A DNA stretch of 32,285 bases from Thelocarpon superellum (Eukaryota): contig JAPEUG010000017.1 in assembly GCA_026025795.1 (NCBI GenBank), forward strand, positions 62,001-94,285, given 5' to 3'. Under the pieces are notes generated by a model. It saw only the letters and a list, made by a program, of their open reading frames with translations. It was not told the origin of the DNA and made no database searches. The translations under genes and the position numbers were made by a program. Of this stretch, positions 300 to 31,212 are shown piece by piece (position 1 is the first letter of the stretch; each line of letters starts with the position of its first letter).

Positions 300-3200
300 T
301 CAGTGTTCCACCTCGCGTAGGTCTAGTGCCCGTTGCTCCGGAATACCCGCCCGTGCCATGCTCCCCCGCTCGTAGATCGTTGAGACGCCGATGAAACCGA
401 GATCGTTCTGCCGTGGGTAATACACCTTCATGTCATCGATGTGGTACCGCTTCTCATTTCCACCGTAGAGATCTCTCACGTAGCCCGAGACTCCTGACGA
501 GGTCAGTCTGGTGAGCAGCCTCGGTCCGAACCATTTCGCATCGAGCTTTCTGCCGTAGTCCTTGTCCAAGCTCATGTCCCGGATGAGCACTAAGTCTCCG
601 ACCTTAGGCGTCGTCCACATGGGGTTCTTCGCCTTTTCCATACGCGTATGTGATCTAGCGACCGCGAGCACCGCGTGCTCCCGTTGCTCATCGCGTCGTG
701 CGATATGGAAACCCCAAGCTTCCATAGGGAAGTTATCCGCTTCCTCGAGCGTCACATGGTACGGTGGATCGTCGTCGCGATGCGTCCAGGCCGGTCTGAA
801 TCCGAGCATCACCTCCGCGGGGGTGAACCCGTGCACCCGTACCAATCTCGTGTTGATATCGAGAGCCGCTTTCGGTAACGCTCTCCCCCATAGCGATCTC
901 GACGGTAAGCCTCGCTCGAGCACCCACTTCCGTAGCTGGCTTATCACCAACTGAACGCTTCGCTCTGCCAGTCCCACTGACGCTGGATGAGATACCGGCG
1001 CAAGGTAGTACCGTGTCCCGTGTGACTCGAACAGGGCTTGCACCTCTGACCCCGTAAAGTGGGTCCCGTTGTCCGAGTAAACCGTCTTTGGCCACCCGTA
1101 GCAAGGACTTAGTCGATTGACCCACATGTCGTGGACCGCTTCCTGGTTGGCATGAGCGTACGGCTGTAGCCACAGCATCCGGCTGAAATAGTCGATGACG
1201 ATGAGCACATATCTGGCTCCCGTAGCCTCACACATCGGAGAGATCGGTCCGAGGAAGTCCATTCCTACCATATCGTATGGTTGGAAGTGTTGTATGGGCT
1301 TGAGGATCGCGGACTTTTTCCGTGGCCCCGTGTACTGGCATGCTTCACACGTACGGCAGTGCTTCTCGACGTCGTTCACTCGGGTCGGCCAGTAGTAGTT
1401 GCCCACCAGCTTCTCTAAGGTAACGGCCTTTGCGAAATGGCCGTGTTCCTCGTGAGCCCACTGTAGCGCTCTGGAGCACTCTTGCTCGACCAGGCACTTC
1501 GGTCGCGTGCCATTCGTCTCACGGTAAAGGAGCGCGGTGTCGGTGAGGTGGAACCGTAAGGATTGTCGTCGCAGCGCTCTGATCTCGCTCTCACCGCATC
1601 CCATCTGCCGTAGACCCTCCGTGCCTTCGGTAAGGAAGACGACGAGCTTGCTGTACCACTTGCTTCGCTCATACTTCTCGAGCTTAGCCGTCCTGATGAC
1701 CTGCGGTGGCTTCACCTCCACTTCCTCGGTCCCTTCCATAGGCTCGCTGCCTTCTCCGGTAAGTATCGCCGGCATGGCCATACGCTCCGTGTCTTCTGCG
1801 CGGGGTATGGTGGTGTAGGATCGCGGCATCCGTGACATCCCGTCGGCTATGCTCATGATATTCGCCTTGCCTGGTCGGTGGTGGATCTCGATGTCGTATT
1901 CCGTCAATCGATCGAGCCAGCGCGCCAGTCTCCCGTGGGAGTCAGTCCCGTTCCGCAGGATCGATGTGAGTGCCTCGTGGTCGGTGTAGACCTTCGTGGG
2001 GTATGGGCTCCCCATGATCAACCACCGGGTCTCCGCGAGTCCCCGTACTACCGCAAGTGCCTCCCGTTCCGTTGTCATGTAGCGAGTCTCCACATCTTCC
2101 AGTCTGAACGACAGGAACATGATGATGCGCACTGACCCTTTGAGTCGGTCAGTGGCTTCCGTACCCGCTGGTTGATCCTGCAACTGAAACAAGACGCCAC
2201 CGAGCCCGTACTTGCTAGCATCCGTGGCCAGGTGATACTGAAGTCCTGGGTCGCTGCCACTCATCGCGTTCCGATCGATCGCGTCCCGGATATGCTGGAA
2301 CGACTTCCTCTGCCGTTCACCAAACTCGTATCGACCGGTCTCCACCCACTTCTTCCGTATTGACGGCCGCGTAGTGGTGTTCACCACCACTTCTTCCATA
2401 TACGCCTCCTTGAGGATGCGTACATGGTCAGCTCTACCAGGTATGAATACTCGTAGGAATGGGGTTAGCCAGATGAACGCTTCCAGCTCCTCCCGTGAGG
2501 TGGGCTCGGGCCAGTCCCGTATGCGCTCGCGGTGCCGTATCGACGGTCGCAACCCTTCCGCGCTCCCCGTAAAGCCGATCATCTGCAGCGAGTCCACGAA
2601 GGCCCAGGTCTTGTGCCCTGAGAGGTACACGGGGCCAAACGCCGCCCGTGGGAAATATTGCTCGTGGAGGAAGGCGAATTGCGCTTCGTAGTCGGTGAAC
2701 CCGCCGAGGTGGTCATCCATAAAGGGTGAGAAAGCGGCATCACCATGGTCGCCGATGATTGAGGGCGTCCGTACACTCGTCGCTGTCTTCGGTAGGGGCC
2801 CGAAGACCATATCGGTGAACTGCGTGTAGGTGTGAGGCGCGCCCTTCAGGCCCTGTCCCATGCGACGGTAGAAATACTGCCCGTGGGGAGTCACGATTCC
2901 TGACTTGTACTCGTCCCCCTCCCGTAGAGGAATCGCCCAATAGCCGTTAGACGCATCGGCCTTGAAGAAACAGGTGAACTTTGGCTTGATTACCGTATCG
3001 AGGACCTCATCTAACTGGTGCATGGGATACTGCGGCTTGATCGTGCAGGCGTTGAGGGGCCTGAAGTCATGGACCACCCGTAGTTGGTCCGACCCCTTTC
3101 CCTTCGGCGGGAAGGTCGACCGTGAGCCCCAGTCGCTGGCTCCTCTCACCAGAATCCCCGCTTCCTCCATCTCAGGGAAGATCTGCGCTGCGAACTCCCG

Positions 3201-3743
3201 TTCCTTCCGGTTGTATCGCCCGATCTTCGCGTAGGTCGGATACGAGTCTGGCCGTAGATCTATCGTATGCTCGATCAGGTCCGTTGGCTTGACCTCCCGC
3301 ATCGTCTTCGCGAAGAGATGCCGCCAGGTGTACATCAACCGACGAGCTCTCTGCTGTTGCTCTTCCGTAGCAGCAATCGTGCCAATGGTAATCGATGATG
3401 TTGCAAACCACTCGTCTACCGTACTGATAGGAGTAGTGGTGTCGAGGTCCCGTTGGACCGGTCGTCTCGTCGTCGGGAAGCCGGTCGTCTTCCGTAACGA
3501 GATCGGAGCAACTGACTGCGTCGTCTGGCTGTCCCGTTGGACAGTCGCTAGCTCCGAAGCTGATAGCACGTTCAAGATGATCGGTGGCACTTTCCACCCA
3601 CGTCTCGATTCGAATAGGTCAAGCAAAGCCCATCCTCCTGCTGGCCTAACAGACTCGCCCTCTCCCGTGGCGTCTTCCGTCTGCTCAGGCTCTGGCTCGC
3701 GCCAGCAGTCCCCCTGTCGGACTACTGGCGCCGAGCTTTTCCC
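300..3743 (-). CDS. pol: Pol (reverse transcriptase, RNase H, integrase), translated by -1 frameshift from gag-pro
   Basis: RT motifs LRVVHDFRPLN, KADASNGYW, MGQGLKGAP and FMDD (YxDD). RNase H motifs ATDASKYGLGGVL, EREALA and YTDH. Integrase HHCC (HEEHGH...CRTCEAC) and DDE (MDFLGP, SDNGTHF, GLAER). The frame has no ATG in the overlap with gag. Confidence 0.95.
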   Translation of the reverse strand, partial: GKSSAPVVRQGDCWREPEPEQTEDATGEGESVRPAGGWALLDLFESRRGWKVPPIILNVLSASELATVQRDSQTTQSVAPISLRKTTGFPTTRRPVQRDLDTTTPISTVDEWFATSSITIGTIAATEEQQQRARRLMYTWRHLFAKTMREVKPTDLIEHTIDLRPDSYPTYAKIGRYNRKEREFAAQIFPEMEEAGILVRGASDWGSRSTFPPKGKGSDQLRVVHDFRPLNACTIKPQYPMHQLDEVLDTVIKPKFTCFFKADASNGYWAIPLREGDEYKSGIVTPHGQYFYRRMGQGLKGAPHTYTQFTDMVFGPLPKTATSVRTPSIIGDHGDAAFSPFMDDHLGGFTDYEAQFAFLHEQYFPRAAFGPVYLSGHKTWAFVDSLQMIGFTGSAEGLRPSIRHRERIRDWPEPTSREELEAFIWLTPFLRVFIPGRADHVRILKEAYMEEVVVNTTTRPSIRKKWVETGRYEFGERQRKSFQHIRDAIDRNAMSGSDPGLQYHLATDASKYGLGGVLFQLQDQPAGTEATDRLKGSVRIIMFLSFRLEDVETRYMTTEREALAVVRGLAETRWLIMGSPYPTKVYTDHEALTSILRNGTDSHGRLARWLDRLTEYDIEIHHRPGKANIMSIADGMSRMPRSYTTIPRAEDTERMAMPAILTGEGSEPMEGTEEVEVKPPQVIRTAKLEKYERSKWYSKLVVFLTEGTEGLRQMGCGESEIRALRRQSLRFHLTDTALLYRETNGTRPKCLVEQECSRALQWAHEEHGHFAKAVTLEKLVGNYYWPTRVNDVEKHCRTCEACQYTGPRKKSAILKPIQHFQPYDMVGMDFLGPISPMCEATGARYVLIVIDYFSRMLWLQPYAHANQEAVHDMWVNRLSPCYGWPKTVYSDNGTHFTGSEVQALFESHGTRYYLAPVSHPASVGLAERSVQLVISQLRKWVLERGLPSRSLWGRALPKAALDINTRLVRVHGFTPAEVMLGFRPAWTHRDDDPPYHVTLEEADNFPMEAWGFHIARRDEQREHAVLAVARSHTRMEKAKNPMWTTPKVGDLVLIRDMSLDKDYGRKLDAKWFGPRLLTRLTSSGVSGYVRDLYGGNEKRYHIDDMKVYYPRQNDLGFIGVSTIYERGSMARAGIPEQRALDLREVEH
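3686..3743 (-). other. -1 programmed ribosomal frameshift signal
   Basis: Slippery heptamer G GGA AAA (3743-3737) in the gag frame, a 5-nt spacer, then a 13-bp stem GCGCCAGUAGUCC/GGACUGCUGGCGC with a 7-nt loop. Pol is in the -1 frame. Confidence 0.85.
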
Positions 3744-6307
3744 TGCTCGTCCACCCAGTAGTCGTAACCGTCGAGCTCCTCGTTCAGGCAAGCTAACTCT
3801 TCTTCGGCCATCTCGCCGTCGAATTCCTCCAACTGATCTCCGGTAATAAGCTCCGTGATGGGCGACTCTTCACCCACCGCTGCCGTAACGGTGCGCTGAT
3901 GACCGTTCGTGCCCTGGATGCTCAGGGTCCCCGCGCCGTGGTTCTCCACCGCACGCACCCGATACATCCACTTCTTGCTCAATAGGAGCTCGAAGGTCTC
4001 GTTACCTCCTATCAGGAAGGCTTTCACCTGCGCCAGCACTCCCGCAACGTTAACAGGGAGCCAGACGTATTCCCGTATCGTAGCCGTCGAGTCGTTTGCC
4101 AGACGGACAAACCACTCCTCGTTCATCTCGTGTACCTTGATGTTTGGCAGGCGACGTACAAGATGCGGGCTGACGAGCTCAACGACAGCTCCCGTATCGA
4201 CAAGCGTCCGATGAATCGGCTCATCTCCGATCCAGGCTGTCACGTACAGACAGGTGGTAGGTTTGTCGTCCTCGAATGCTTCTGCCATAATCGTCGGAGC
4301 CTCTAGCGCAGCAGATGCTACAACGGCTTTCTTCCGACCGCGACGAGTCGGCTGCGAGGACTGAAGAGCACGAGCAACCTGTGCCCGGGCCTGCGGTGAT
4401 CGATCGAGAAACTGGTAGACCGGTATGGTGATCATGGTCTCGTGTAGGAACGCGTCGATACTGAATCGATCCTTCCCCTTCGCCAGGTTGATCGGGATGG
4501 TCTCCCGTGGTCCCTTGTTCGGCAACCGTACCACCTGCTGCTCGACCTGTTCCTCCATGGCGTCTGCCGTTCGCTGGTTGCGTGTCTGCGGCATACGCAT
4601 TGGTACAGTATCAACCACCGTCGGCACGGTTGGCTGCACCGATGCGGGGATTGGCGCAGCTGGCGCAGGAGCAGACGCCGCTTGCTGTTGTTGCTCCGTG
4701 GGTGGTGGAGCATTCGTTGGTCCTGAAGCACTGGCTCGTCCATCTTCCGTAGCCGTCTGCTGCGGTTGAGCCTGCTCTGGCGGCTCACCCGTCTCTTCCA
4801 CCTCCATGGGCTGAGGGCTGTTACTCGCTCCCCCAACCTGGCGTACAGACTGATTCGGCTCCCGTCGCTTCGCGATCCGATAGTTCGCCCCAGCTGGTGG
4901 TCTATCCACCACCGTGGGCATCTTCCGTCGGGTGTTGCGAGTGGAATTCCGCGTCGCAGGCATGACTGGCCCCAGCGGAAAGGGCTCGTACATCTGACGA
5001 TTTTGCTGCGTCAGGATAGCCGGCATAGCCGTAAACGTCCGGTCCTGGTCGCTCCTCGCGTCCTGTCTCCCATACCATCCTGGAGGGCCATACGTCCCTC
5101 TACCGTAGGGCGGTTCCCACTGCTCGTTGCCTTCACTCATCCTGTATTTCTGAGCCACGGCAGCGGCTGCCGGTTGCGGACGATGGTGTAGGTTCTTCGG
5201 ATCCGAGGCCATATTCGGATCGACGTTCTGCTGCGTCTGCTGCTGCTGCTGCTGCTGCTGCCGCTGCTGCTGCTGGGTGATACGTGCTCGATTCTCGTTC
5301 TTCTGCTGCCAGCTAACCTGAGGCGCCGGGCAGGAGTTGGAGAAGTGACCGGCTCCCATACAGTTATGGCAGATCACCTCATCGGACGCCTGCGGTCCAC
5401 GACGGGGTGGCTGGTATGGTGGCGGCGGAGGGAAGAACCCCCGTACCGGCTCGGGTGGTGGCTTCGATGGCTGTCCCTTCTCCAGAGACTGCTGGGCCAT
5501 CAACCGTACGAGACCGAGTAACTCGCGGCTGGTGTCCGTAGTCGTAGGGTCCGATGCCGTCAACACCGTCGGCTCCGCCTTCTTGTTCTTCCATTCATCG
5601 AATGGATTCTCCCGTCCGATTCGGCTATACGTCCGCATGATCGCACGTTTCGCATCATCGTACCCGAATAGCTCGAGATCCGGCAGGTAGGTCTGAACGA
5701 GGTCGAGCTTATTTTCTTCCGTAAGACCTCCGACAAGGAACCGTCCGATATGCGGCTTCATCTCTTCGGGGCACCGCTTGTAGAGGTGATCCGCATCGCT
5801 CAGGTATTCCGTAATCGTCTTCTGCCCCTGCCGTAAGGACATGATCTGGTTCGTGATCGTGAAGACGTCAATGGGATTCCGCTTGATGGTGAACTCTTTG
5901 ACGAAAGCGTCCCGGAGCATCTCCCATGAGTCCTTCGTGCTCTCGTCAATCTCATAATACCAGTTGAGGGCCTCATCCCTCAGGCTCATACGGAAGTACA
6001 CGCGGCAGGACAACTCAGCCTGCTCCGTATTGCCGTAGCCCTTCTCGTTGGTGAGGAACCTGATGATCTCGACGTGTTCTTTCGCCGACTCGCGTCCATC
6101 CTTTCTCCCGTAGAAGGGAGGGATCTCGACCGACATCTTCGTAGCTCGTAGGGAAGGAGGGATGAATTTTGGAGGAAGTAGGAAAGGGTCGCTCACGGAC
6201 TGACTCGATCCGCTCGACAAGGGAGATGACGGGAGGTCTACCGTAAGAGGTGGATCTCTGTAGGACGACGACGGGATCGTAAGAGGAAAGGGAGGGGTAA
6301 CGGACAT
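3722..6307 (-). CDS. gag: Gag-aspartic protease polyprotein
   Basis: Retrotransposon gag-like region (SLRDEALNWY...WEMLRDAFVKEF...LRQGQKTITEY), CCHC knuckle CHNCMGAGHFSNSC, a polyQ tract, and retropepsin motif LVDTGA. First ATG is 6307; ATG 6136 (MSVEIPPF) is an alternative start. Confidence 0.92.
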   Translation of the reverse strand: MSVTPPFPLTIPSSSYRDPPLTVDLPSSPLSSGSSQSVSDPFLLPPKFIPPSLRATKMSVEIPPFYGRKDGRESAKEHVEIIRFLTNEKGYGNTEQAELSCRVYFRMSLRDEALNWYYEIDESTKDSWEMLRDAFVKEFTIKRNPIDVFTITNQIMSLRQGQKTITEYLSDADHLYKRCPEEMKPHIGRFLVGGLTEENKLDLVQTYLPDLELFGYDDAKRAIMRTYSRIGRENPFDEWKNKKAEPTVLTASDPTTTDTSRELLGLVRLMAQQSLEKGQPSKPPPEPVRGFFPPPPPYQPPRRGPQASDEVICHNCMGAGHFSNSCPAPQVSWQQKNENRARITQQQQRQQQQQQQQTQQNVDPNMASDPKNLHHRPQPAAAAVAQKYRMSEGNEQWEPPYGRGTYGPPGWYGRQDARSDQDRTFTAMPAILTQQNRQMYEPFPLGPVMPATRNSTRNTRRKMPTVVDRPPAGANYRIAKRREPNQSVRQVGGASNSPQPMEVEETGEPPEQAQPQQTATEDGRASASGPTNAPPPTEQQQQAASAPAPAAPIPASVQPTVPTVVDTVPMRMPQTRNQRTADAMEEQVEQQVVRLPNKGPRETIPINLAKGKDRFSIDAFLHETMITIPVYQFLDRSPQARAQVARALQSSQPTRRGRKKAVVASAALEAPTIMAEAFEDDKPTTCLYVTAWIGDEPIHRTLVDTGAVVELVSPHLVRRLPNIKVHEMNEEWFVRLANDSTATIREYVWLPVNVAGVLAQVKAFLIGGNETFELLLSKKWMYRVRAVENHGAGTLSIQGTNGHQRTVTAAVGEESPITELITGDQLEEFDGEMAEEELACLNEELDGYDYWVDEQGKARRQ

Positions 6308-6625
6308 GAACTCTTCCGTATGGCTACTTCTTCGTACGAACTGACTCGAGTCGGCTTCAATTCTCACAACCAGCTGACAGGTCCCCTGTCTAACTGGTAG
6401 TGAGAAGAAGGATCTACCGTATCAATCACTGCCGTCTGGTGACGTCTCCGCGGAGGCAACAACGGTCTGCCGTTCAGGAAGCTGTATTCCCGTGCGGGTT
6501 CGTTACAACGATTCGATTCTTCGTCCGTTATCGACGGCTCTACCGTAACGGTCGACTGCCTATCCTCGAGGCTCTCGTATCTCTCAAAGGTGACCCAGAC
6601 TCGTATGACAATAGAGTCTTTCTGT

Positions 6626-11159: not shown

Positions 11160-11690
11160 TCAAGTCTCGTTGGCCTTGGCCGCCTTGGCTTTTGCCTTGG
11201 CTTTTGCCTTGGCCCTCTCCTTGTCCTCCTTCCTCGACAAGACCGTAGCCAACCACTCCTCCATCTCCTCGTCGGCGTCACGATCGGTGCGCACGTCTCC
11301 CTCGACGCCCATGGTGCGATGCAGCCGATGCCGCATATCGGCCACGGAGGCAACGTCAAAGGCCCAGAGCGCGACGCCGGTGACCATCATGGCGAGACTC
11401 ACGACGTTGATGGTGGCGATGTTCAGCGCCTCCAGCGCCTCCATCGCGCCATTGACCTCGCCTGCCGGACGGTTGCTCGGCTGGTAAAAGGCCGGGATGG
11501 AGGCCTTGTAGCGTCGCGCGAGTGAGCGACGGGTGATGATGGTGGAGCAGAAGAGAAAGGTGGCGCCGCCGGCGACGAGACCGAGCTGTCGTCGCGCCCG
11601 GGCCGAGGTAAATCGTGCGAGGAGGCCGTTGTCGTGCGGTGGAGCACCCGACCCGGGAATCGACCCGGGGCCCGCGACAGACCCGTCCAT
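11160..11690 (-). CDS. AIM11: Altered inheritance of mitochondria protein 11 homologue
   Basis: Two hydrophobic segments and family-like motifs RRQLGLVAGGATF...ITRRS, FYQPSN and AMEALEALNIAT...ALWAFDV. The tail is an (AK)n repeat. Confidence 0.82.
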   Translation of the reverse strand: MDGSVAGPGSIPGSGAPPHDNGLLARFTSARARRQLGLVAGGATFLFCSTIITRRSLARRYKASIPAFYQPSNRPAGEVNGAMEALEALNIATINVVSLAMMVTGVALWAFDVASVADMRHRLHRTMGVEGDVRTDRDADEEMEEWLATVLSRKEDKERAKAKAKAKAKAAKANET

Positions 11691-11875
11691 GAAGATGACA
11701 AAGGGCAGGCGCGACGGGTGCGTTGGACGGTGTCGTTGGCCGCGACGACGGAGCTCGAGCTTTGGAAAAGTAGCCGTGGAGTTGGATTGTTCAAACTCAA
11801 ACCGCCAAACCGTTTAATATCTTGCATTAAGGTCCTCCAATCGAACGCCAGGGGGTTTTCGCAAAGGAACTTCAG

Positions 11876-12051
11876 GCCCCGCTAGCGTGAGTTTCTCGAG
11901 CTGGCGCACTCGTCGTATTTTCTAACATTACCCTCTATAGGCAATGGTAGCGCGCCAGACTTCTACTTCGGGTCTGGAGAGTATCCTTCTCTTCATCTAC
12001 GTGCTCAGTGTGCAGATCTGGAGGCTGCGGGTTCGAGTCCCGCGCGGGGTG
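11876..12051 (+). tRNA. trnR: tRNA-Arg(UCU) with two introns (11887-11940 in the D-stem; 11966-12015 at 37/38)
   Basis: The spliced product GCCCCGCTAGCGCAATGGTAGCGCGCCAGACTTCTAATCTGGAGGCTGCGGGTTCGAGTCCCGCGCGGGGTG is 72 nt. Stems: acceptor GCCCCGC/GCGGGGT, D GCGC/GCGC, anticodon CCAGA/TCTGG around CT-TCT-AA, T GCGGG/CCCGC with loop TTCGAGT. Discriminator is G73. Confidence 0.9.
11887..11940 (+). other. Spliceosomal-type (U2) intron inside the tRNA D-stem
   Basis: GTGAGT donor, CTAAC branch (11922-11926), TAG acceptor, 54 nt. Exact removal restores the acceptor stem, D-stem and A box. Confidence 0.8.
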
Positions 12052-12057
12052 TGGTGA

Positions 12058-12062
12058 TTTTT
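12058..12062 (+). terminator. Pol III terminator (T5)
   Basis: TTTTT lies 6 nt after the tRNA discriminator base. Confidence 0.6.
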
Positions 12063-12692
12063 GCATCGGTTGCATTATTCTTTGGTTTCCGGGTAGCTGG
12101 GAGCGCTGCTAGGTTTGAGGTTGTCATTATTAGCCAGGATGGTCGCAGTCAACGTTGGGCTGCGTAGGTTGGAATGTAGTCCTCGAATTGCAGCTGACTT
12201 GGGTGACTCGATGACTGTCTGGCGTCTGGTTCAGCGCGCCACTTGGCCGAAGCGAGTCGATTGGCGTCTGTGCACGATTCACTCTAACCATTTTTGAAGG
12301 AACGAGAAGGTGGGCTCACGTCATGGTCATGCCTAGCTAGGTATGCATCGGCGACTAGACGCCCAAGCGTTAGCTACTATCAGGAACCAGAAGAAGGGAC
12401 CCTGTAACGGGAGCACGTAACGGGAGCACCAGGTAGGCGAATACCTGGACTCTAGGTAAGAGCCTGCGATAAGACTGGCATTAGCAGGCGAACACCAATA
12501 CAGAAAATAGGGGAAGCGCCTGCTGGGGGGCATAGTTCAATCCCGACCATCCTACAGCCACGCCCTCCTGGTCGCACTGGAAGAAGACTAGACACCTAAT
12601 ATTAGATAGCTATGCAGCTCAGCCTGTCTATAAGTCTATACCTTCCTCACCGAACGGACTTTGGGAAAAGGAATTAGGTAGCAATTGGATGC

Positions 12693-14234
12693 TTAGCCCT
12701 CCATTCCAGCATCACCTCCTGTGCTCTCCTTCAGTTGCGCCACCTCCCACCCAGCCTCGATCAATGAATCGGCTGTCTCGCAGAAGCAGAGAAGTTCATT
12801 GGGAGCGATGGAGGCATTGTGCACATTCGACCAGCCCATGAATCCAGCCACTTCCCCCTCAGCCACTACCACCTTCTTAGGCATTCCTGTTTCTTGCCGG
12901 ATCAATGCAGAGCCACAGACCCCATCGCGGATCTTTGGCATGCTGCCAATCTCTGGAGCACTGGTGGCGTAAATTCCTTGTCGAACGGTCACGTACGGCT
13001 CATCGGGAGGTGGACCTGGGACCTGGGCTTGGCGGGATGGGCGAGACTGCGAAATGGGCAAGCGTACGCCAAGGCATCTCAGGCGTTGTGTCCCAGTGAC
13101 GAAGGAGTCAATGACCATGACGTCGCGGAAGTTGACATTTTGGAAGGGAAGAAGGCGCTGAGGCGTGATGGCTGCATCCAGGAAGGTCTGGCAGAATTTG
13201 ATCCCATCGTGTAGCTCTGCGAGGCCAATGTCTGTCTTTCCCATCCGACTGGTGACATTGGCGACATGGTCATGTTGCCCTTGCGACACAACAAAGTCGT
13301 TCTTCGACCCCAGAATACCTGGTTTCTCTGCCATCTCCTGGTCCCAGGCATGGATCGCCACTGTGAGGCGGATTTCCTCCCCCTTGCTAACCGCGATACC
13401 TGCTGTCGTAAGGTTGCCCTCCTGAGATCCAATCATGGCACCCGGGGAAAAGCATCCCGCATGGGTGACATAATCTGTGTCGTCGTAGACTCCATCAAGG
13501 AGACCGGGTCGTGGGTGGTCAAGACGCTTGTGGGAATTGAGCATCAGAGGACCATTGACATAGAGAATGCCAACAGAGGAATTGCTGAAGGCGCTTGGCA
13601 ACTTGTCGAGCTGCGCTCGCCATTCTTCGTCGTCGACACCTGGGAACTCGATGACCAGGTTGCAGGTCAGATATGATATGGCGTTTGCCGTGGGGAAATG
13701 CACCTTCACCATGGTAGCAAGCGTCGACGCCATCGGAAGGCGGAAGGGCTTGAGATCGGCCACAAGGTCTTCCTGGAGGCTGATCGTCCGATCGTGGTTG
13801 GGGAAATCTCCGTAAAAGCCAAGACCGACCGGGAGAGGGTCATTGAGATGGAGCCAGACAGCGATGCCATCGGCCACTAGAAAGGGCCGCGAGTCTGGTG
13901 GTGGCACGTTCTCACATTGGAGAACAAGGAATGGCCCACTCTCCATGATGGTGAGGGCTCCGTATGTGGTGCCTAGGTATTCTGACAGGACTTCCATGTC
14001 TGCCTGGCTCAAACGAGAGAACGATTTTTCTTCCTCATTCCACATGGAAAACGGAAAGTTGAGCGAGGCCGTCTGGAGATCGTGATAGACATTGACATCA
14101 GACGACTTAGGTAGGACTGAGCTTCCTGGTGGAGTAGATGATCGAGAGGGTACGACAATCCGCCGAGACTTGACAGGGCTCCAGGACGGCCGGGTACGGC
14201 GGCGAGCCTGGACTGGCGAGAGCACAAGCGACAT
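12693..14234 (-). CDS. Hypothetical protein (513 aa) with a C-terminal chymotrypsin-like protease fold and putative His-Asp-Cys triad
   Basis: Long intronless ORF. Motifs TTAGIAV..RLTVAIH (H295), TDIGLAEL (D335) and GVCGSALI (C440). TATATAAA lies upstream at 14401-14394. Confidence 0.72.
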   Translation of the reverse strand: MSLVLSPVQARRRTRPSWSPVKSRRIVVPSRSSTPPGSSVLPKSSDVNVYHDLQTASLNFPFSMWNEEEKSFSRLSQADMEVLSEYLGTTYGALTIMESGPFLVLQCENVPPPDSRPFLVADGIAVWLHLNDPLPVGLGFYGDFPNHDRTISLQEDLVADLKPFRLPMASTLATMVKVHFPTANAISYLTCNLVIEFPGVDDEEWRAQLDKLPSAFSNSSVGILYVNGPLMLNSHKRLDHPRPGLLDGVYDDTDYVTHAGCFSPGAMIGSQEGNLTTAGIAVSKGEEIRLTVAIHAWDQEMAEKPGILGSKNDFVVSQGQHDHVANVTSRMGKTDIGLAELHDGIKFCQTFLDAAITPQRLLPFQNVNFRDVMVIDSFVTGTQRLRCLGVRLPISQSRPSRQAQVPGPPPDEPYVTVRQGIYATSAPEIGSMPKIRDGVCGSALIRQETGMPKKVVVAEGEVAGFMGWSNVHNASIAPNELLCFCETADSLIEAGWEVAQLKESTGGDAGMEG

Positions 14235-14638: not shown

Positions 14639-15187
14639 TGTATATAACCGTAGCTAGCTAGCTGATTTACTCAACAATTTTACAACCTCCCACTCAACTG
14701 ACTACGTACGTAGCAAAGACTGGCCCTGTGTGAGGGCGTGCACGTGACTTGGTCATCACGTGCGCCTTCATCTACTATTCCATCCACGCGTAGAATTTGC
14801 AATAAATTACATGTCTGATTCCTACAACTGCAAGTACAGTCCCTCCTGGCTCGCTGGGTAAATAAGGGCCAACTCATCTAGGGAAGAGATCACACTGACT
14901 CGTGATGCGCAGAGGGAATGCAGCGAAAGATAGTACTAAGGCTGACGATAAAACTCTGCTTGGGTCTCCCCATACCAAATAGACAGAAACTCCTAATGCA
15001 GCATTTCCCGTTCCGCCCTTCGCGATCAGCTGTAGTAGCCTTAGATTATGTCATCCTCCAACAACTCGTAGGCTGGCGAACCGTCATCTCGTCATCTTGT
15101 TATCCTGCCATCGCGGCATCCCGTCATCGGCAGCTCGCGTACCTTGACGTGGAGGTCGTTGGTCTGTCGTCCTATTCCTCGCTGGTC

Positions 15188-17161
15188 ATGGTGATGAGGG
15201 CACGGCTGCTGCCGCTGTGCAGTCGACATGCCCCCCTCACGCTCATTGGCCGGAGGAGCTCTGGGGCCCCGCCCAACTTCCCCCGACCGGTCCGGACGCA
15301 GCAGTTTCAACCTTTGACGCCGCCGGCGCCCAGCTCTCTGCCCAAGCCCGCGCCACCCAAGACCTACACCCGACTGCGTCGATCCACCCGGCGCGCGGTC
15401 TACCTAACGCTGGCGACGGGCCTGGTGTACCTGATCGATCGACAGTGGTACGCGTCGTCGTTGACGAGGAGCGCCCGGACGTTTGGCGTCGGCATCATCG
15501 TGGCGCTGGACTACAAGATCAACTTCCGACCACACCCGCCGCTGGCCGAATCGATCGAGGCCCTCCACCGGCGAAATGCCGAACGGCTTTCGGATCTGCT
15601 GCGCAACAACGGCGGCCTCTACCTCAAGATCGGGCAGGCCATTGCGATGCAGAGCGCCATCCTGCCGCCCGAGTTCCAGAAGATGTTTGCGCGCATGTTC
15701 GACGACGCGCCGCAGAACAGCTGGGCCGAGGTGCAGCAGGTGATTCGGGAAGACCTGGGCGGGTCGCCGGAAGAGGTCTTTGGCGTGAGCTTCGACGGCG
15801 ATCCGGCGCGCGGCGTCATGGAGCAGACGGCGCGGGCCAGTGCCAGCGTGGCGCAAGTGCACTGGGCCCGTCTGGCCGACGGGCGTGAGGTGGCCATCAA
15901 GGTGCAGAAACGAGAGATTGCGCAACAGGTGGGATGGGACCTGTGGGCGTTCAAGGTGGTGGCGTATCTGTACACGAGCATCTTCGACCTCCCCCTCTAC
16001 AGCTTCGTGCCGTACATCTCGGGCCGTCTGTTGCTGGAGACGGACTTTGTCAACGAGGCGGACAACGCGGAACGCATGGCGGAGCTGGTGGCCCACGACT
16101 CGCGCCTGCGCGGCCGGGTCTATGTGCCTGTGGTCTACCGCGACCTCAGCTCCAAGCGCATCATGACGGCGGAGTGGATCGAGGGCGTGCGACTGTGGGA
16201 TAAGGAGACCTTGACGGCGCCGTGGCGCGGCGGACGACGGGGGAGCCCGGGATGCCAGGGGGCGCCCTTGGATGGGCCGTCAGACCCCACGGCGCCGGCC
16301 CGGCCCGACGGACGCATCAAGCCCGATCGCACGGGGTGGAAGGGCAAGGACGGCAAGGCCGGGCTCGGGCTGAGTCTCAAGGAGGTTATGACGAGCATGG
16401 TGGATCTATTCTCGGCCCAGATGTTCCTCTGGGGCTGGGTACATTGCGACCCGCACCCGGGCAACATCTTCATCCGGCGGCTTCCGTCCGGCCGGCCGGA
16501 GCTGGTCCTGCTGGACCACGGGCTCTACATCCACCTGGAGCCGGCATTCCGGCACCAGTACGCGCTGTTCTGGAAATCCCTGCTCACGTTCGACAACGCC
16601 ACGCTGGCGACGATCGCCAAGAGCTGGGGGATCGGCAACGCGGACTTTTTCGCCTCGGCCACGCTCATGCGGCCGTACGCCGGGGCGGACCAGAACATGG
16701 CGCGGCAGATGCGCCACGGCTTCGGCCGCGACCGACGAGACGGAGCCGAACGGTCGTTCGAAGCGCAGCAGCGCATGCGCGCCAACATCCGCGACATCCT
16801 CGGCGACGAGACCAAGTGGCCGCTCGAGCTCATCTTCCTCGGGCGCAACCTGCGCATCGTGCAGGGCAACAACCAGTACCTGGGCTCGCCCGTCAACCGG
16901 ATCAAAATCACCGGCACGTGGGCCTCGCGCGCCCTCGTCGACTCGCCCGACCTGTCGTACGCGCAGAAATGGACGAATCTCGGTCGCCATCTCATCTTCA
17001 CCCTCGTCATGTTCTCCAGCGACCTGCTCTTCTACACCAGCAAGCTCCGGCAGTGGCTGGGATGGGGCCAGGGCATGGAAGACGACATGGAGAGGCAGTT
17101 GAAGGGCATCGCGAAGGAGACGTTGGGCGTGGAGTTGAACCACGGTGTTTTTGATGGATGA
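15188..17161 (+). CDS. ABC1/UbiB-family atypical kinase, ADCK1/Mcp2-like, probably mitochondrial
   Basis: KxGQ (LYLKIGQ), ASASVAQVH, VAIKVQ, HCDPHPGNI and LLDHGL. An Arg-rich presequence-like N-terminus starts at ATG 15188 or 15194. Confidence 0.93.
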   Translation: MVMRARLLPLCSRHAPLTLIGRRSSGAPPNFPRPVRTQQFQPLTPPAPSSLPKPAPPKTYTRLRRSTRRAVYLTLATGLVYLIDRQWYASSLTRSARTFGVGIIVALDYKINFRPHPPLAESIEALHRRNAERLSDLLRNNGGLYLKIGQAIAMQSAILPPEFQKMFARMFDDAPQNSWAEVQQVIREDLGGSPEEVFGVSFDGDPARGVMEQTARASASVAQVHWARLADGREVAIKVQKREIAQQVGWDLWAFKVVAYLYTSIFDLPLYSFVPYISGRLLLETDFVNEADNAERMAELVAHDSRLRGRVYVPVVYRDLSSKRIMTAEWIEGVRLWDKETLTAPWRGGRRGSPGCQGAPLDGPSDPTAPARPDGRIKPDRTGWKGKDGKAGLGLSLKEVMTSMVDLFSAQMFLWGWVHCDPHPGNIFIRRLPSGRPELVLLDHGLYIHLEPAFRHQYALFWKSLLTFDNATLATIAKSWGIGNADFFASATLMRPYAGADQNMARQMRHGFGRDRRDGAERSFEAQQRMRANIRDILGDETKWPLELIFLGRNLRIVQGNNQYLGSPVNRIKITGTWASRALVDSPDLSYAQKWTNLGRHLIFTLVMFSSDLLFYTSKLRQWLGWGQGMEDDMERQLKGIAKETLGVELNHGVFDG

Positions 17162-28109: not shown

Positions 28110-28875
28110 ATGCAGATCTCCGCCCAGGCTGCGTTACTCAGCATGTTTGCGGTTCTAGCGAGGGCTGACAGAGGTCCACCCTTTCAACTCAGAACACAGC
28201 CTGTCAACGGTGCAAGCAGATTTAACCCCCTCTACTGTAATTACAGCCTCTTCCCCTGGTCACAAGGTCCATTTATGGCCTTGGTCAAATCGTCGGTGTC
28301 TAACTCGATCAGTGACAACGGTTTTTCAGTGGAATATTCCCAACGAAGTGGACATTGTCGAAGCACCAACTTCCGCTGCTCTCGTGGACGAGGTGCCATC
28401 TGGACAGTCCTTGCTATACGACAACACTAGTGGAGTCGTCACGGTCCGAAATGATTGGGCCAATACAAACCTATCTTTTGTCCTCACTTCTCCGTCTGAG
28501 AACAATGAAACAAACCAAGTTCATCTCACAGATGAATATGCAATCGAGCAAGAGGAGACCCGCGCTGATCCTCTACATAATCCTCTGCTTCATCTGGTCT
28601 ATGGCGTTGCATATGAGCCAGGCACACGGTTTGCATTCAACAGTTCCCGCCTTGTGTCAACTACAGATCATGGATCTTGGCTTGGTGAGTCCCTCCAACT
28701 CTAGCTCCTTGTTCAGGCTCCTTCCCACATCCAGACTAATGGCGAAACAGCCTGTTCCCCCGAAATTGCGAATACCTCGGCGTCTCTCAAATTTGTCAAC
28801 GCCGCTCAAGATACGGGGGATTTCAAAGGATGCGACCATGTCTACCTCGTTCAGGTGAACGTCACACTACATTGA
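28110..28875 (+). CDS. Small secreted or cell-wall-type protein (207 aa, 3 exons)
   Basis: Exons 28110-28236, 28313-28684 and 28751-28875. Introns are GTAATT..CTAAC..CAG and GTGAGT..CTAAT..CAG. Signal peptide, FQLRT motif, C-terminal WLAC...GCDHVYL and several N-x-S/T sequons. Confidence 0.75.
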
Positions 28876-29899: not shown

Positions 29900-31212
29900 A
29901 TGACGGCCGCCATCTCTATTCAGGACCGCACGGGCGAGTTCCGGTCCATCCTGAACGTGGCCCAGAAGCGCCAGGTGACCTCCAAAGTGGGCGCACAGCG
30001 GCAGTCGCTGCTGACGGAGACGCAACGTCGCGAGGCCAATGGCTCGCCCAACGGACATGCCCCCACCGGGAAGCGGGCGCGATCCGAGTTTGCCCGCCGG
30101 GCGGCCGAGATCGGCCGCGGTATCACCGGTACGATGGTGAAGCTGGAGCGATTGGCGCAGCGTGGGTGGTCATGACCGGGCCGATGGAGGCCGAGCCGAC
30201 GCTGATGCTTGATAGTGGCGAAACGGAAGACGCTGTTCGATGACCGGCCCGTCGAGATTGCGGAACTGACCTACATCATCAAGCAAGACCTCTCCTCGCT
30301 CAACGCGCAAATCTCCTCCCTCCAGGGCCTCTCCCGATCTCAACACCCGTCGTTGTCGCGGACCGCTCCCGGGGCGCAGGAGGGGGAACACAACAAGAAT
30401 GTCGTGGTGCTCCTGCAGGGCAAGCTGGCCGACGTGTCGGTCAACTTCAAGGATGTGCTGGAGGTGCGGACCAAGAACATTCAGGCCTCGCGCTCACGCA
30501 CGGAGAACTTTGTGTCCTCGGTCTCGTCGCACTCCCAGCCCAACGAGCCGCAGCAATCCGCCTCGCCCCTCTACCACACCCCAACCAAGAGCCGGTCACC
30601 GGCCCCGGGATACCCACCCCAGCAGAACCCGGACCTACTCAACCTCGAACCATCCACATCGTCCGCGCTGGCCCGGAGCGGGCCTCAATCGGACCAGCAG
30701 CTGTTGATGATGGAGGAAGCCCAACCCACCAACACCTACATCCACCAGCGTGGCGAGGCCATTGAAGCCATCGAGCGCACCATTGCCGAGCTGGGCGGCA
30801 TCTTTGGCAACCTGGCCACGATGGTGCAGGAGCAATCGGAGATGATTCAACGCATCGACGCCAACACCGATGATGTTGTTGGTGGGTCATGATGTTCTGG
30901 TTGTCCAGCCGAGCGCCGTGCTGACACTCCCCCCAACAGACAATGTCGCCGGCGCACAACGGGAATTATTAAAGTATTGGTCGAGGTACGATTGCACCCC
31001 TCCCTCTTCGTCCGCCCCATCCCTTTTCTCCCCCCCCTCATCCCACGCTCGTCCCATCCCTCTCCACGTACAGATCCGCAAGACCGACGAGGAGAAAAAA
31101 GGCTGACCAGATGCGTGTCTTGTGCAGGGTAAGCGGCAACAGATGGCTAGTGCTGAAGATGTTTGGGGTCTTGTGTATTTTCTTTCTCCTTTGGGTCTTG
31201 ATTGCTGGGTAA
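29900..31212 (+). CDS. SED5: Syntaxin-5 / cis-Golgi t-SNARE (352 aa, 4 exons)
   Basis: N-peptide IQDRTGEF, LAKRKTLFDDRPVEI, SNARE motif IEAIERTIAELGGIF..QRIDAN, and a C-terminal TM helix. Exons 29900-30161, 30216-30881, 30940-30985 and 31128-31212 total 1059 nt. Confidence 0.96.

Follow-up and report, generated by a model that had tools for sequence, protein, structure and literature searches.

A fungal tRNA-Arg(UCU) gene divided in its D-stem by a 54-nt insert with the signals of a U2-type spliceosomal intron

The window, which is the whole stretch of 32,285 bp of DNA that was analysed, carries a tRNA-Arg(TCT) gene in which three exons are separated by two intervening segments, as determined by direct sequence reading in combination with ARAGORN (Table 1). 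The gene is located in a spacer of about 1 kb between two minus-strand ORFs, the one of 176 aa bearing a putative label and the one of 513 aa being followed by an ABC1 kinase gene, whose closest protein clusters come mostly from Ascomycota. A Ty3/gypsy-type LTR retroelement with domains of both retrotransposon ORFs is present in the same window, and the genome is therefore provided with a source of reverse transcriptase. Relatives of Ty3 integrate near Pol III genes.

Table 1. Positions of the tRNA gene, its parts, the neighbouring genes and the mRNA introns used for comparison, numbered within the window.
Feature	Position	Strand	Description	Basis
Ty3/gypsy-type LTR retroelement	300-6421	-	distance to the tRNA gene ~5.5 kb	
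Retroelement ORF	303-3869		RT, RNase H and integrase domains	
Retroelement ORF	3725-6421		retrotransposon gag domain	
176-aa ORF	11160-11690	-	"AIM11-like" (putative label); no Pfam match	
tRNA-Arg(TCT) gene	11876-12051	+	three exons, two intervening segments	direct sequence reading, ARAGORN
Exon 1	11876-11886	+	GCCCCGCTAGC; acceptor positions 1-7, U8, A9, D-stem positions 10-11	direct reading
Candidate U2-type intron	11887-11940	+	54 nt; splits tRNA positions 11/12	direct reading, signal search
Donor	11887-11892	+	GTGAGT	
Branch motif	11922-11926	+	CTAAC; branch A at 11925	
Acceptor	11938-11940	+	TAG	
Exon 2	11941-11965	+	remainder of D-arm, position 26, 5' anticodon stem, loop to position 37	ARAGORN
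Canonical tRNA intron, 37/38	11966-12015	+	50 nt; starts CTTCGG, not GT-AG	ARAGORN -i
Exon 3	12016-12051	+	3' anticodon stem, 5-nt variable loop, T-arm, 3' acceptor strand	
B box	12030-12040	+	GGTTCGAGTCC	
T5 run, Pol III terminator-like	12058-12062	+	6 nt past the discriminator base	direct reading
513-aa ORF	12693-14234	-	opposite side of the spacer	
ABC1 kinase gene	14918-17161		next after the 513-aa ORF	
Candidate intron	28685-28750		begins GTGAGT; strict signal set	
SED5 (syntaxin 5) gene	29915-30889	+	Syntaxin-5_N domain in first exon, E 2e-08	
SED5 intron 1	30162-30215	+	54 nt; GTGGGT, branch motif CTGAT, TAG; phase 1, interrupts a codon	

According to ARAGORN, the anticodon TCT lies within exon 2, and exon 3 contributes the 3' acceptor strand at 12044-12050 together with the discriminator G at 12051. 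Upon removal of the 54-nt insert, exon 1 was found to pair with this acceptor strand and with the D-stem bases 24-25, as evident from both the ARAGORN output and the predicted fold. Since the insert and exon 2 each start with G, the splice boundary can be drawn in two registers, 1 nt apart, of which only one gives GT-AG bounds. A transposon-like insertion with target duplication was ruled out, the bounds revealing a mere 1-nt ambiguity and no target-site duplication. The gene region further contains an 8-nt direct repeat, TTGCATTA, whose copies at 11822-11829 and 12070-12077 flank the tRNA unit at distances of 47 nt on the 5' side and 19 nt on the 3' side. By our own estimate, such a repeat does not exceed chance in a region as large as this one.

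Two observations were made on the second intervening segment. The heptamer TCTGGAG at 11973-11979 in the 37/38 intron is an exact copy of 12017-12023, which comprises the 3' anticodon-stem strand and two further bases. In the fold predicted for the precursor lacking the 54-nt insert alone, the anticodon stem is exchanged for alternative pairings.

The insert was excised by its coordinates in a script and ARAGORN was rerun, upon which a 72-nt tRNA-Arg(tct) was called, having a 7-bp acceptor stem with one G.U at 1:72, a D stem of 4 bp, and anticodon and T stems of 5 bp each, all fully paired. The minimum-free-energy fold of this 72-mer is the cloverleaf, at -35.0 kcal/mol. Signs of decay were found nowhere in the tRNA body: 21 of 21 stem pairs are standard (one of them G.U), and the invariants U8, A14, G18, G19, U33 and GTTCGA are all present. 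The cloverleaf with its invariant nucleotides emerges only once both introns are out. A first-pass annotation of this DNA had described a tRNA-Arg(UCU) gene split in its D-stem by an mRNA-type insert, whose excision would leave a fully paired 72-nt tRNA free of visible decay; this description agrees with the restored cloverleaf and with the intact stems, B box and invariants. Excision at the GT-AG bounds alone, with no further free parameter, yields the perfect cloverleaf, which supports a live gene.

A different picture was obtained with the sequence left intact. ARAGORN with default settings reported no tRNA in the whole window, and no Rfam tRNA match was obtained at the gathering threshold or, for 11700-12250, at E <=10, where the sole match was a weak one to a tmRNA model over the T-arm region. 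The expectation of the first-pass annotation that standard tRNA scanners miss the gene was confirmed by these blank default runs. Its companion statement that direct reading gives no valid 5' acceptor strand or D-stem held for the same runs and requires amendment for ARAGORN -i, which forced a poor call. With introns allowed in this way, a single gene was called in the entire window, namely a 74-nt tRNA starting at 11929 with an acceptor of 8 positions, of which three are G.U pairs and one is a C.C mismatch, together with a D stem of 3 bp and no U8 in register.

All three U2 signals that had been claimed for the insert were read in it (Table 1), the branch A preceding the final base by 15 nt and the TAG acceptor being preceded by a pyrimidine-rich tail. 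The fungal extended 5' splice consensus is GTRAGT. The hexamer GTGAGT was counted nine times on both strands of the window, and the strict combination GTRAGT..CTRAY..YAG at an intron-like length was found in three segments on both strands of the 32,285 bp, with the insert among them. The probability that a random 54-mer has the full set of three signals, as calculated from base composition, is ~9e-7. By every sequence criterion applied, the data support the assignment of the insert as a putative U2-type intron.

The 5' piece that is missing upon direct reading of the tRNA had been placed 54 nt upstream, and it was found there as exon 1. It was sought as an 11-mer comprising the absent 5' acceptor strand, U8, R9 and two bases of the D-stem, with G.U allowed. 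Fitting 11-mers occur at 3 of ~64,500 positions, so that a 150-nt stretch upstream on the right strand would hold 0.010 of them by expectation. The example at 11876 is the sole fitting 11-mer upstream on the same strand, and GTGAGT follows it at once. Taken together, the joint chance is ~1e-8 (~9e-7 from the signals, multiplied by 0.01 from the match of the 5' piece). Given the rarity of the signal triple and the fit of the 5' 11-mer, the combination is therefore not attributable to chance.

A chance resemblance or an assembly artefact has in its favour that a single locus in a single assembly is concerned, yet it would have to account for a joint chance of this order, and no sign of a mis-join was seen. 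The 54-mer is unique in the 32-kb window, in which a search for further copies, such as an introner-like mobile intron would have, gave none and a best other match of 10 nt, and the repeats nearby, of 8-10 nt, are at chance level. We consider this explanation scarcely credible.

Within the insert, 11901-11910 is 90% complementary to 11949-11958 of exon 2, which extends from the 3' strand of the D-stem to the anticodon stem. By this pairing the D-arm could stay open until splicing. Inverted repeats of 10 nt such as this one are expected about 1-2 times by chance in the 331-nt region according to our own estimate.

For comparison, the mRNA introns of the window were considered. The insert has the same length as SED5 intron 1, which is the one verified mRNA intron available for this comparison (n = 1) and whose removal restores the reading frame. 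Both the 54-nt length of that intron and the GTGAGT start of the segment at 28685 had been pointed out before, and both were found as described, the latter segment being a candidate intron by its signals.

The location of the insert at 11/12 is outside the canonical 37/38 position, and it was examined for the geometry of a tRNA-type intron. The BHB test employed was a rough one, considering a 4-bp central helix only and using no energy model, with the 37/38 intron as positive control. No BHB central helix was found at the insert bounds in any of 16 registers (best 3/4), whereas the control 37/38 intron gave 4/4. In the minimum-free-energy fold of the 176-nt precursor, the acceptor stem and the T-arm form and the 5' cut site is inside a helix. 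TSEN measures from the mature domain in the manner of a ruler. Contacts of Sen54 with the D-arm are described in PMC4090602.

These data bear on the explanation that the insert is an ectopic tRNA-type intron which would be cut out by the tRNA splicing endonuclease and sealed by the ligase, its likeness to an mRNA intron being incidental. Multiple introns and D-arm introns are indeed documented in C. merolae and in nucleomorphs (PMC4090602, PMC3728597). Eukaryotic ectopic tRNA introns are described as confined to nucleomorphs and the red alga Cyanidioschyzon merolae and as short or BHB-dependent (PMC4090602), and the word "spliceosome" has 0 occurrences in that review on ectopic tRNA introns. 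Against such an intron stand the lack of a central helix or bulge geometry at the cut sites, the burial of the 5' cut site in a helix of the predicted precursor fold, the ruler of fungal TSEN, which runs from the mature domain, and the three optimal U2 signals, whose coincidence would have a chance of ~9e-7. An ectopic tRNA-type intron is for these reasons very improbable.

The Pol III signals of the gene were inspected next to its structure. The B-box consensus is GGTTCGANTCC, and the B box of exon 3 shows 0 mismatches to it, with a T-stem of 5/5. The A box, on the other hand, is split, positions 8-11 (TAGC) being in exon 1 and positions 12-19 (A14..G18G19) 54 bp downstream, and the full A-box motif is re-formed at neither junction. 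The longest T-run inside the insert is T4 at 11918-11921, and no T5 or longer run is present within the unit. The first-pass annotation had the T-run stopping at T4, which is correct for the insert and was complemented by the T5 that follows the gene. The intact B box, the nearby T5 and the absence of an internal T5 fit a putative Pol III unit that would extend from upstream of 11876 to 12062.

Across the window, 12 B-box-like sites with <=1 mismatch were seen compared to 9.7 expected, and a 5/5 T-stem was found only at 12030 and at 17131 on the minus strand. The latter site, 17131-17141 (-), combines an exact B box with a 5-bp T-stem in the last codons of the ABC1 kinase gene. Neither an acceptor nor an anticodon arm was recognised there on reading, and no ARAGORN call was made; the site was rejected as a second tRNA and attributed to chance.

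Since the A box is split, TFIIIC/TFIIIB might place the transcription start within the insert, leaving exon 1 out of the transcript. If so, Pol III would yield a poor 74-nt tRNA-like RNA from 11929, and the upstream 11-mer would be irrelevant. The cloverleaf that ARAGORN -i returned from the intact sequence is in line with such a product, and the end of the insert together with exon 2 retains the downstream half of the A box. The product itself speaks against it, with its C.C mismatch, three G.U pairs, 3-bp D stem and U8 out of register, and it would leave without explanation that, exactly one intron length upstream, there is a 5' piece which fits perfectly and runs into GTGAGT. We regard this short RNA as highly unlikely to be the product of the locus.

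The explanation to be taken most seriously beside a live gene is that of a dead one, in which a spliceosomal intron was recently copied into one of many tRNA-Arg(UCU) copies while intact copies supply the tRNA. The intron could owe its arrival either to reverse splicing with reverse transcription or to its use as filler DNA where the DNA had broken. The split A box would then result in no transcription from upstream of exon 1, or else the precursor would be inefficiently spliced, and decay would not yet have begun. Consistent with this, the A box is separated by 54 bp, default scanners report no tRNA, and the retroelement at a distance of 5.5 kb has intact-looking ORFs, from which a reverse transcriptase is, or was, active in the genome. 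If a redundant copy had received the insertion very recently, it would likewise show a perfect intron within a perfect tRNA body.

Three points argue to the contrary. No substitution is visible at any of the 72 tRNA positions or at the 14 positions that make up the signals of the insert, and the B box and the terminator are intact. Moreover, had the intron arrived by reverse splicing into the tRNA precursor, the RNA that received it would necessarily also be one that can be spliced in the forward direction. A recently inactivated copy nevertheless agrees with the same sequence facts, and features of the splice site itself add to the case against a live gene. For U1 binding, a 5' exon of just 11 nt plus leader, which as a Pol III transcript would have no cap, offers unfavourable conditions, and this counts against a live gene. 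The bases at the exon junction differ from the usual AG/G proto-splice context, and as read from the DNA this junction and the split A box likewise count against a functional gene. Altogether, we judge a dead copy to be a real possibility, though a less likely one than a live gene.

The interpretation that we prefer is that of a live nuclear tRNA-Arg(UCU) gene with two introns of different kinds, which would need both the spliceosome and TSEN for its maturation; we assign to it a rough probability of 0.5. In this gene, Pol III most likely transcribes the whole 176-nt unit from a start in the former 5' flank, ahead of 11876, passes the insert, whose longest T-run is T4, and ends at the T5. The spliceosome would then excise the GT-AG insert of 54 nt by way of a branch at A11925, and excision would join position 11 to position 12 and allow the D-stem to form. 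From the restored tRNA body, TSEN and tRNA ligase would take out the 50-nt 37/38 intron. Because the TSEN ruler runs from the mature domain, the spliceosomal step should precede the TSEN step. With regard to its origin, an excised mRNA intron was probably reverse-spliced into the pre-tRNA and, after reverse transcription, introduced into the gene by recombination.

Stated in full, this would be a fungal cytoplasmic tRNA whose D-stem is built by the U2-type spliceosome before TSEN acts, and the first tRNA with a functional spliceosomal intron, a claim to which we attach slightly less than even odds. In the searched full-text literature, which includes few subscription journals, eukaryotic tRNA introns are taken out by a protein endonuclease together with a ligase, and no description of a spliceosomal intron in a tRNA gene or of a spliceosome-dependent tRNA was found. 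A precedent in print for a spliceosomal intron in a tRNA may exist. Metagenomes were scanned with a degenerate pattern of exon 2 in which the preceding base was not C, a query that is confined to this D-arm type. The scan returned 3 loci, two of them identical in sequence, and a tRNA was called by ARAGORN -i in 0 of the 3, all of which look like chance matches.

If the gene is live, the two nuclear splicing systems would be linked on a single RNA, and the series of non-coding RNAs with mRNA-type introns (U6, U1, U2, U5 and rRNA) would be extended to tRNA. Annotations could then miss tRNA genes, with effects on tRNA gene counts and decoding tables, and a missed gene would matter most if it were the genome's sole reader of the AGA codon. 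Should the finding prove general, such genes would be systematically overlooked or wrongly labelled by tRNA scanners in both fungi and algae. If true, it would also be direct evidence that reverse splicing lets spliceosomal introns colonise any abundant nuclear RNA. Even a dead gene would represent a clean, datable landing of a spliceosomal intron in a gene without Pol II transcription. In either case the locus bears on the question of intron origin, that is, on reverse splicing into an abundant RNA with reverse transcription versus insertion at the DNA level.

The locus would extend the known mRNA-type introns of non-coding, Pol III-type genes; its anatomy is unambiguous, its function putative. 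The introns of C. merolae and of cryptophyte and chlorarachniophyte nucleomorphs resemble the present insert in that they are located outside 37/38, the D arm included, and occur together with a second intron (PMC4090602, PMC3728597). These introns are short (3-24 nt in nucleomorphs), BHB-dependent or of a mechanism given there as unknown, and are described as lacking the GT..branch..AG arrangement (PMC4090602, PMC3728597). In contrast, the insert of the tRNA-Arg gene fails the BHB test and has full U2 signals.

Spliceosomal introns with canonical signals are carried by fungal genes for U6, which is made by Pol III, for U1, U2 and U5 snRNA, and for rRNA (PMC5855946). Among these are the U1, U2 and U5 genes of Rhodotorula hasegawae (Takahashi 1993, 1996, cited in PMC5855946) and the rRNA genes of lichen-forming ascomycetes (Bhattacharya 2000, cited in PMC5855946). 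With both groups the tRNA-Arg gene shares a GT-AG intron in a fungal non-coding gene, some of these genes, namely those for rRNA, likewise not being transcribed by Pol II; it differs from them in RNA class and polymerase, and none of these examples is a tRNA. Reverse splicing was suggested as the origin of the U6, snRNA and rRNA introns (PMC5855946) and is discussed for intron transposition generally (PMC11146597).

By analogy, the closest precedent is the mRNA-type intron in the Pol III-made U6 snRNA of fission yeast. Introns in U6 are found in Schizosaccharomyces pombe and stem from multiple independent insertions in fungi (Tani and Ohshima 1989, 1991; Canzler 2016, cited in PMC5855946). Like fungal U6, the tRNA is a short, abundant and structured non-coding RNA with internal Pol III promoter elements, and in both cases the intron is short and has canonical 5', branch and 3' sites, the interior of the U6 intron being otherwise unconserved (PMC5855946). 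The U6 introns are thought to have originated by reverse splicing and reverse transcription (PMC5855946), the same route as is proposed for the present insert. Unlike U6, the tRNA is known here from DNA alone and is not a component of the spliceosome, so that the insertion cannot be put down to closeness to the catalytic centre. A further difference from U6 is that the tRNA-Arg insert cuts both the A box and the D-stem of a gene that also has a TSEN intron, so that a single RNA would be processed by two splicing systems.
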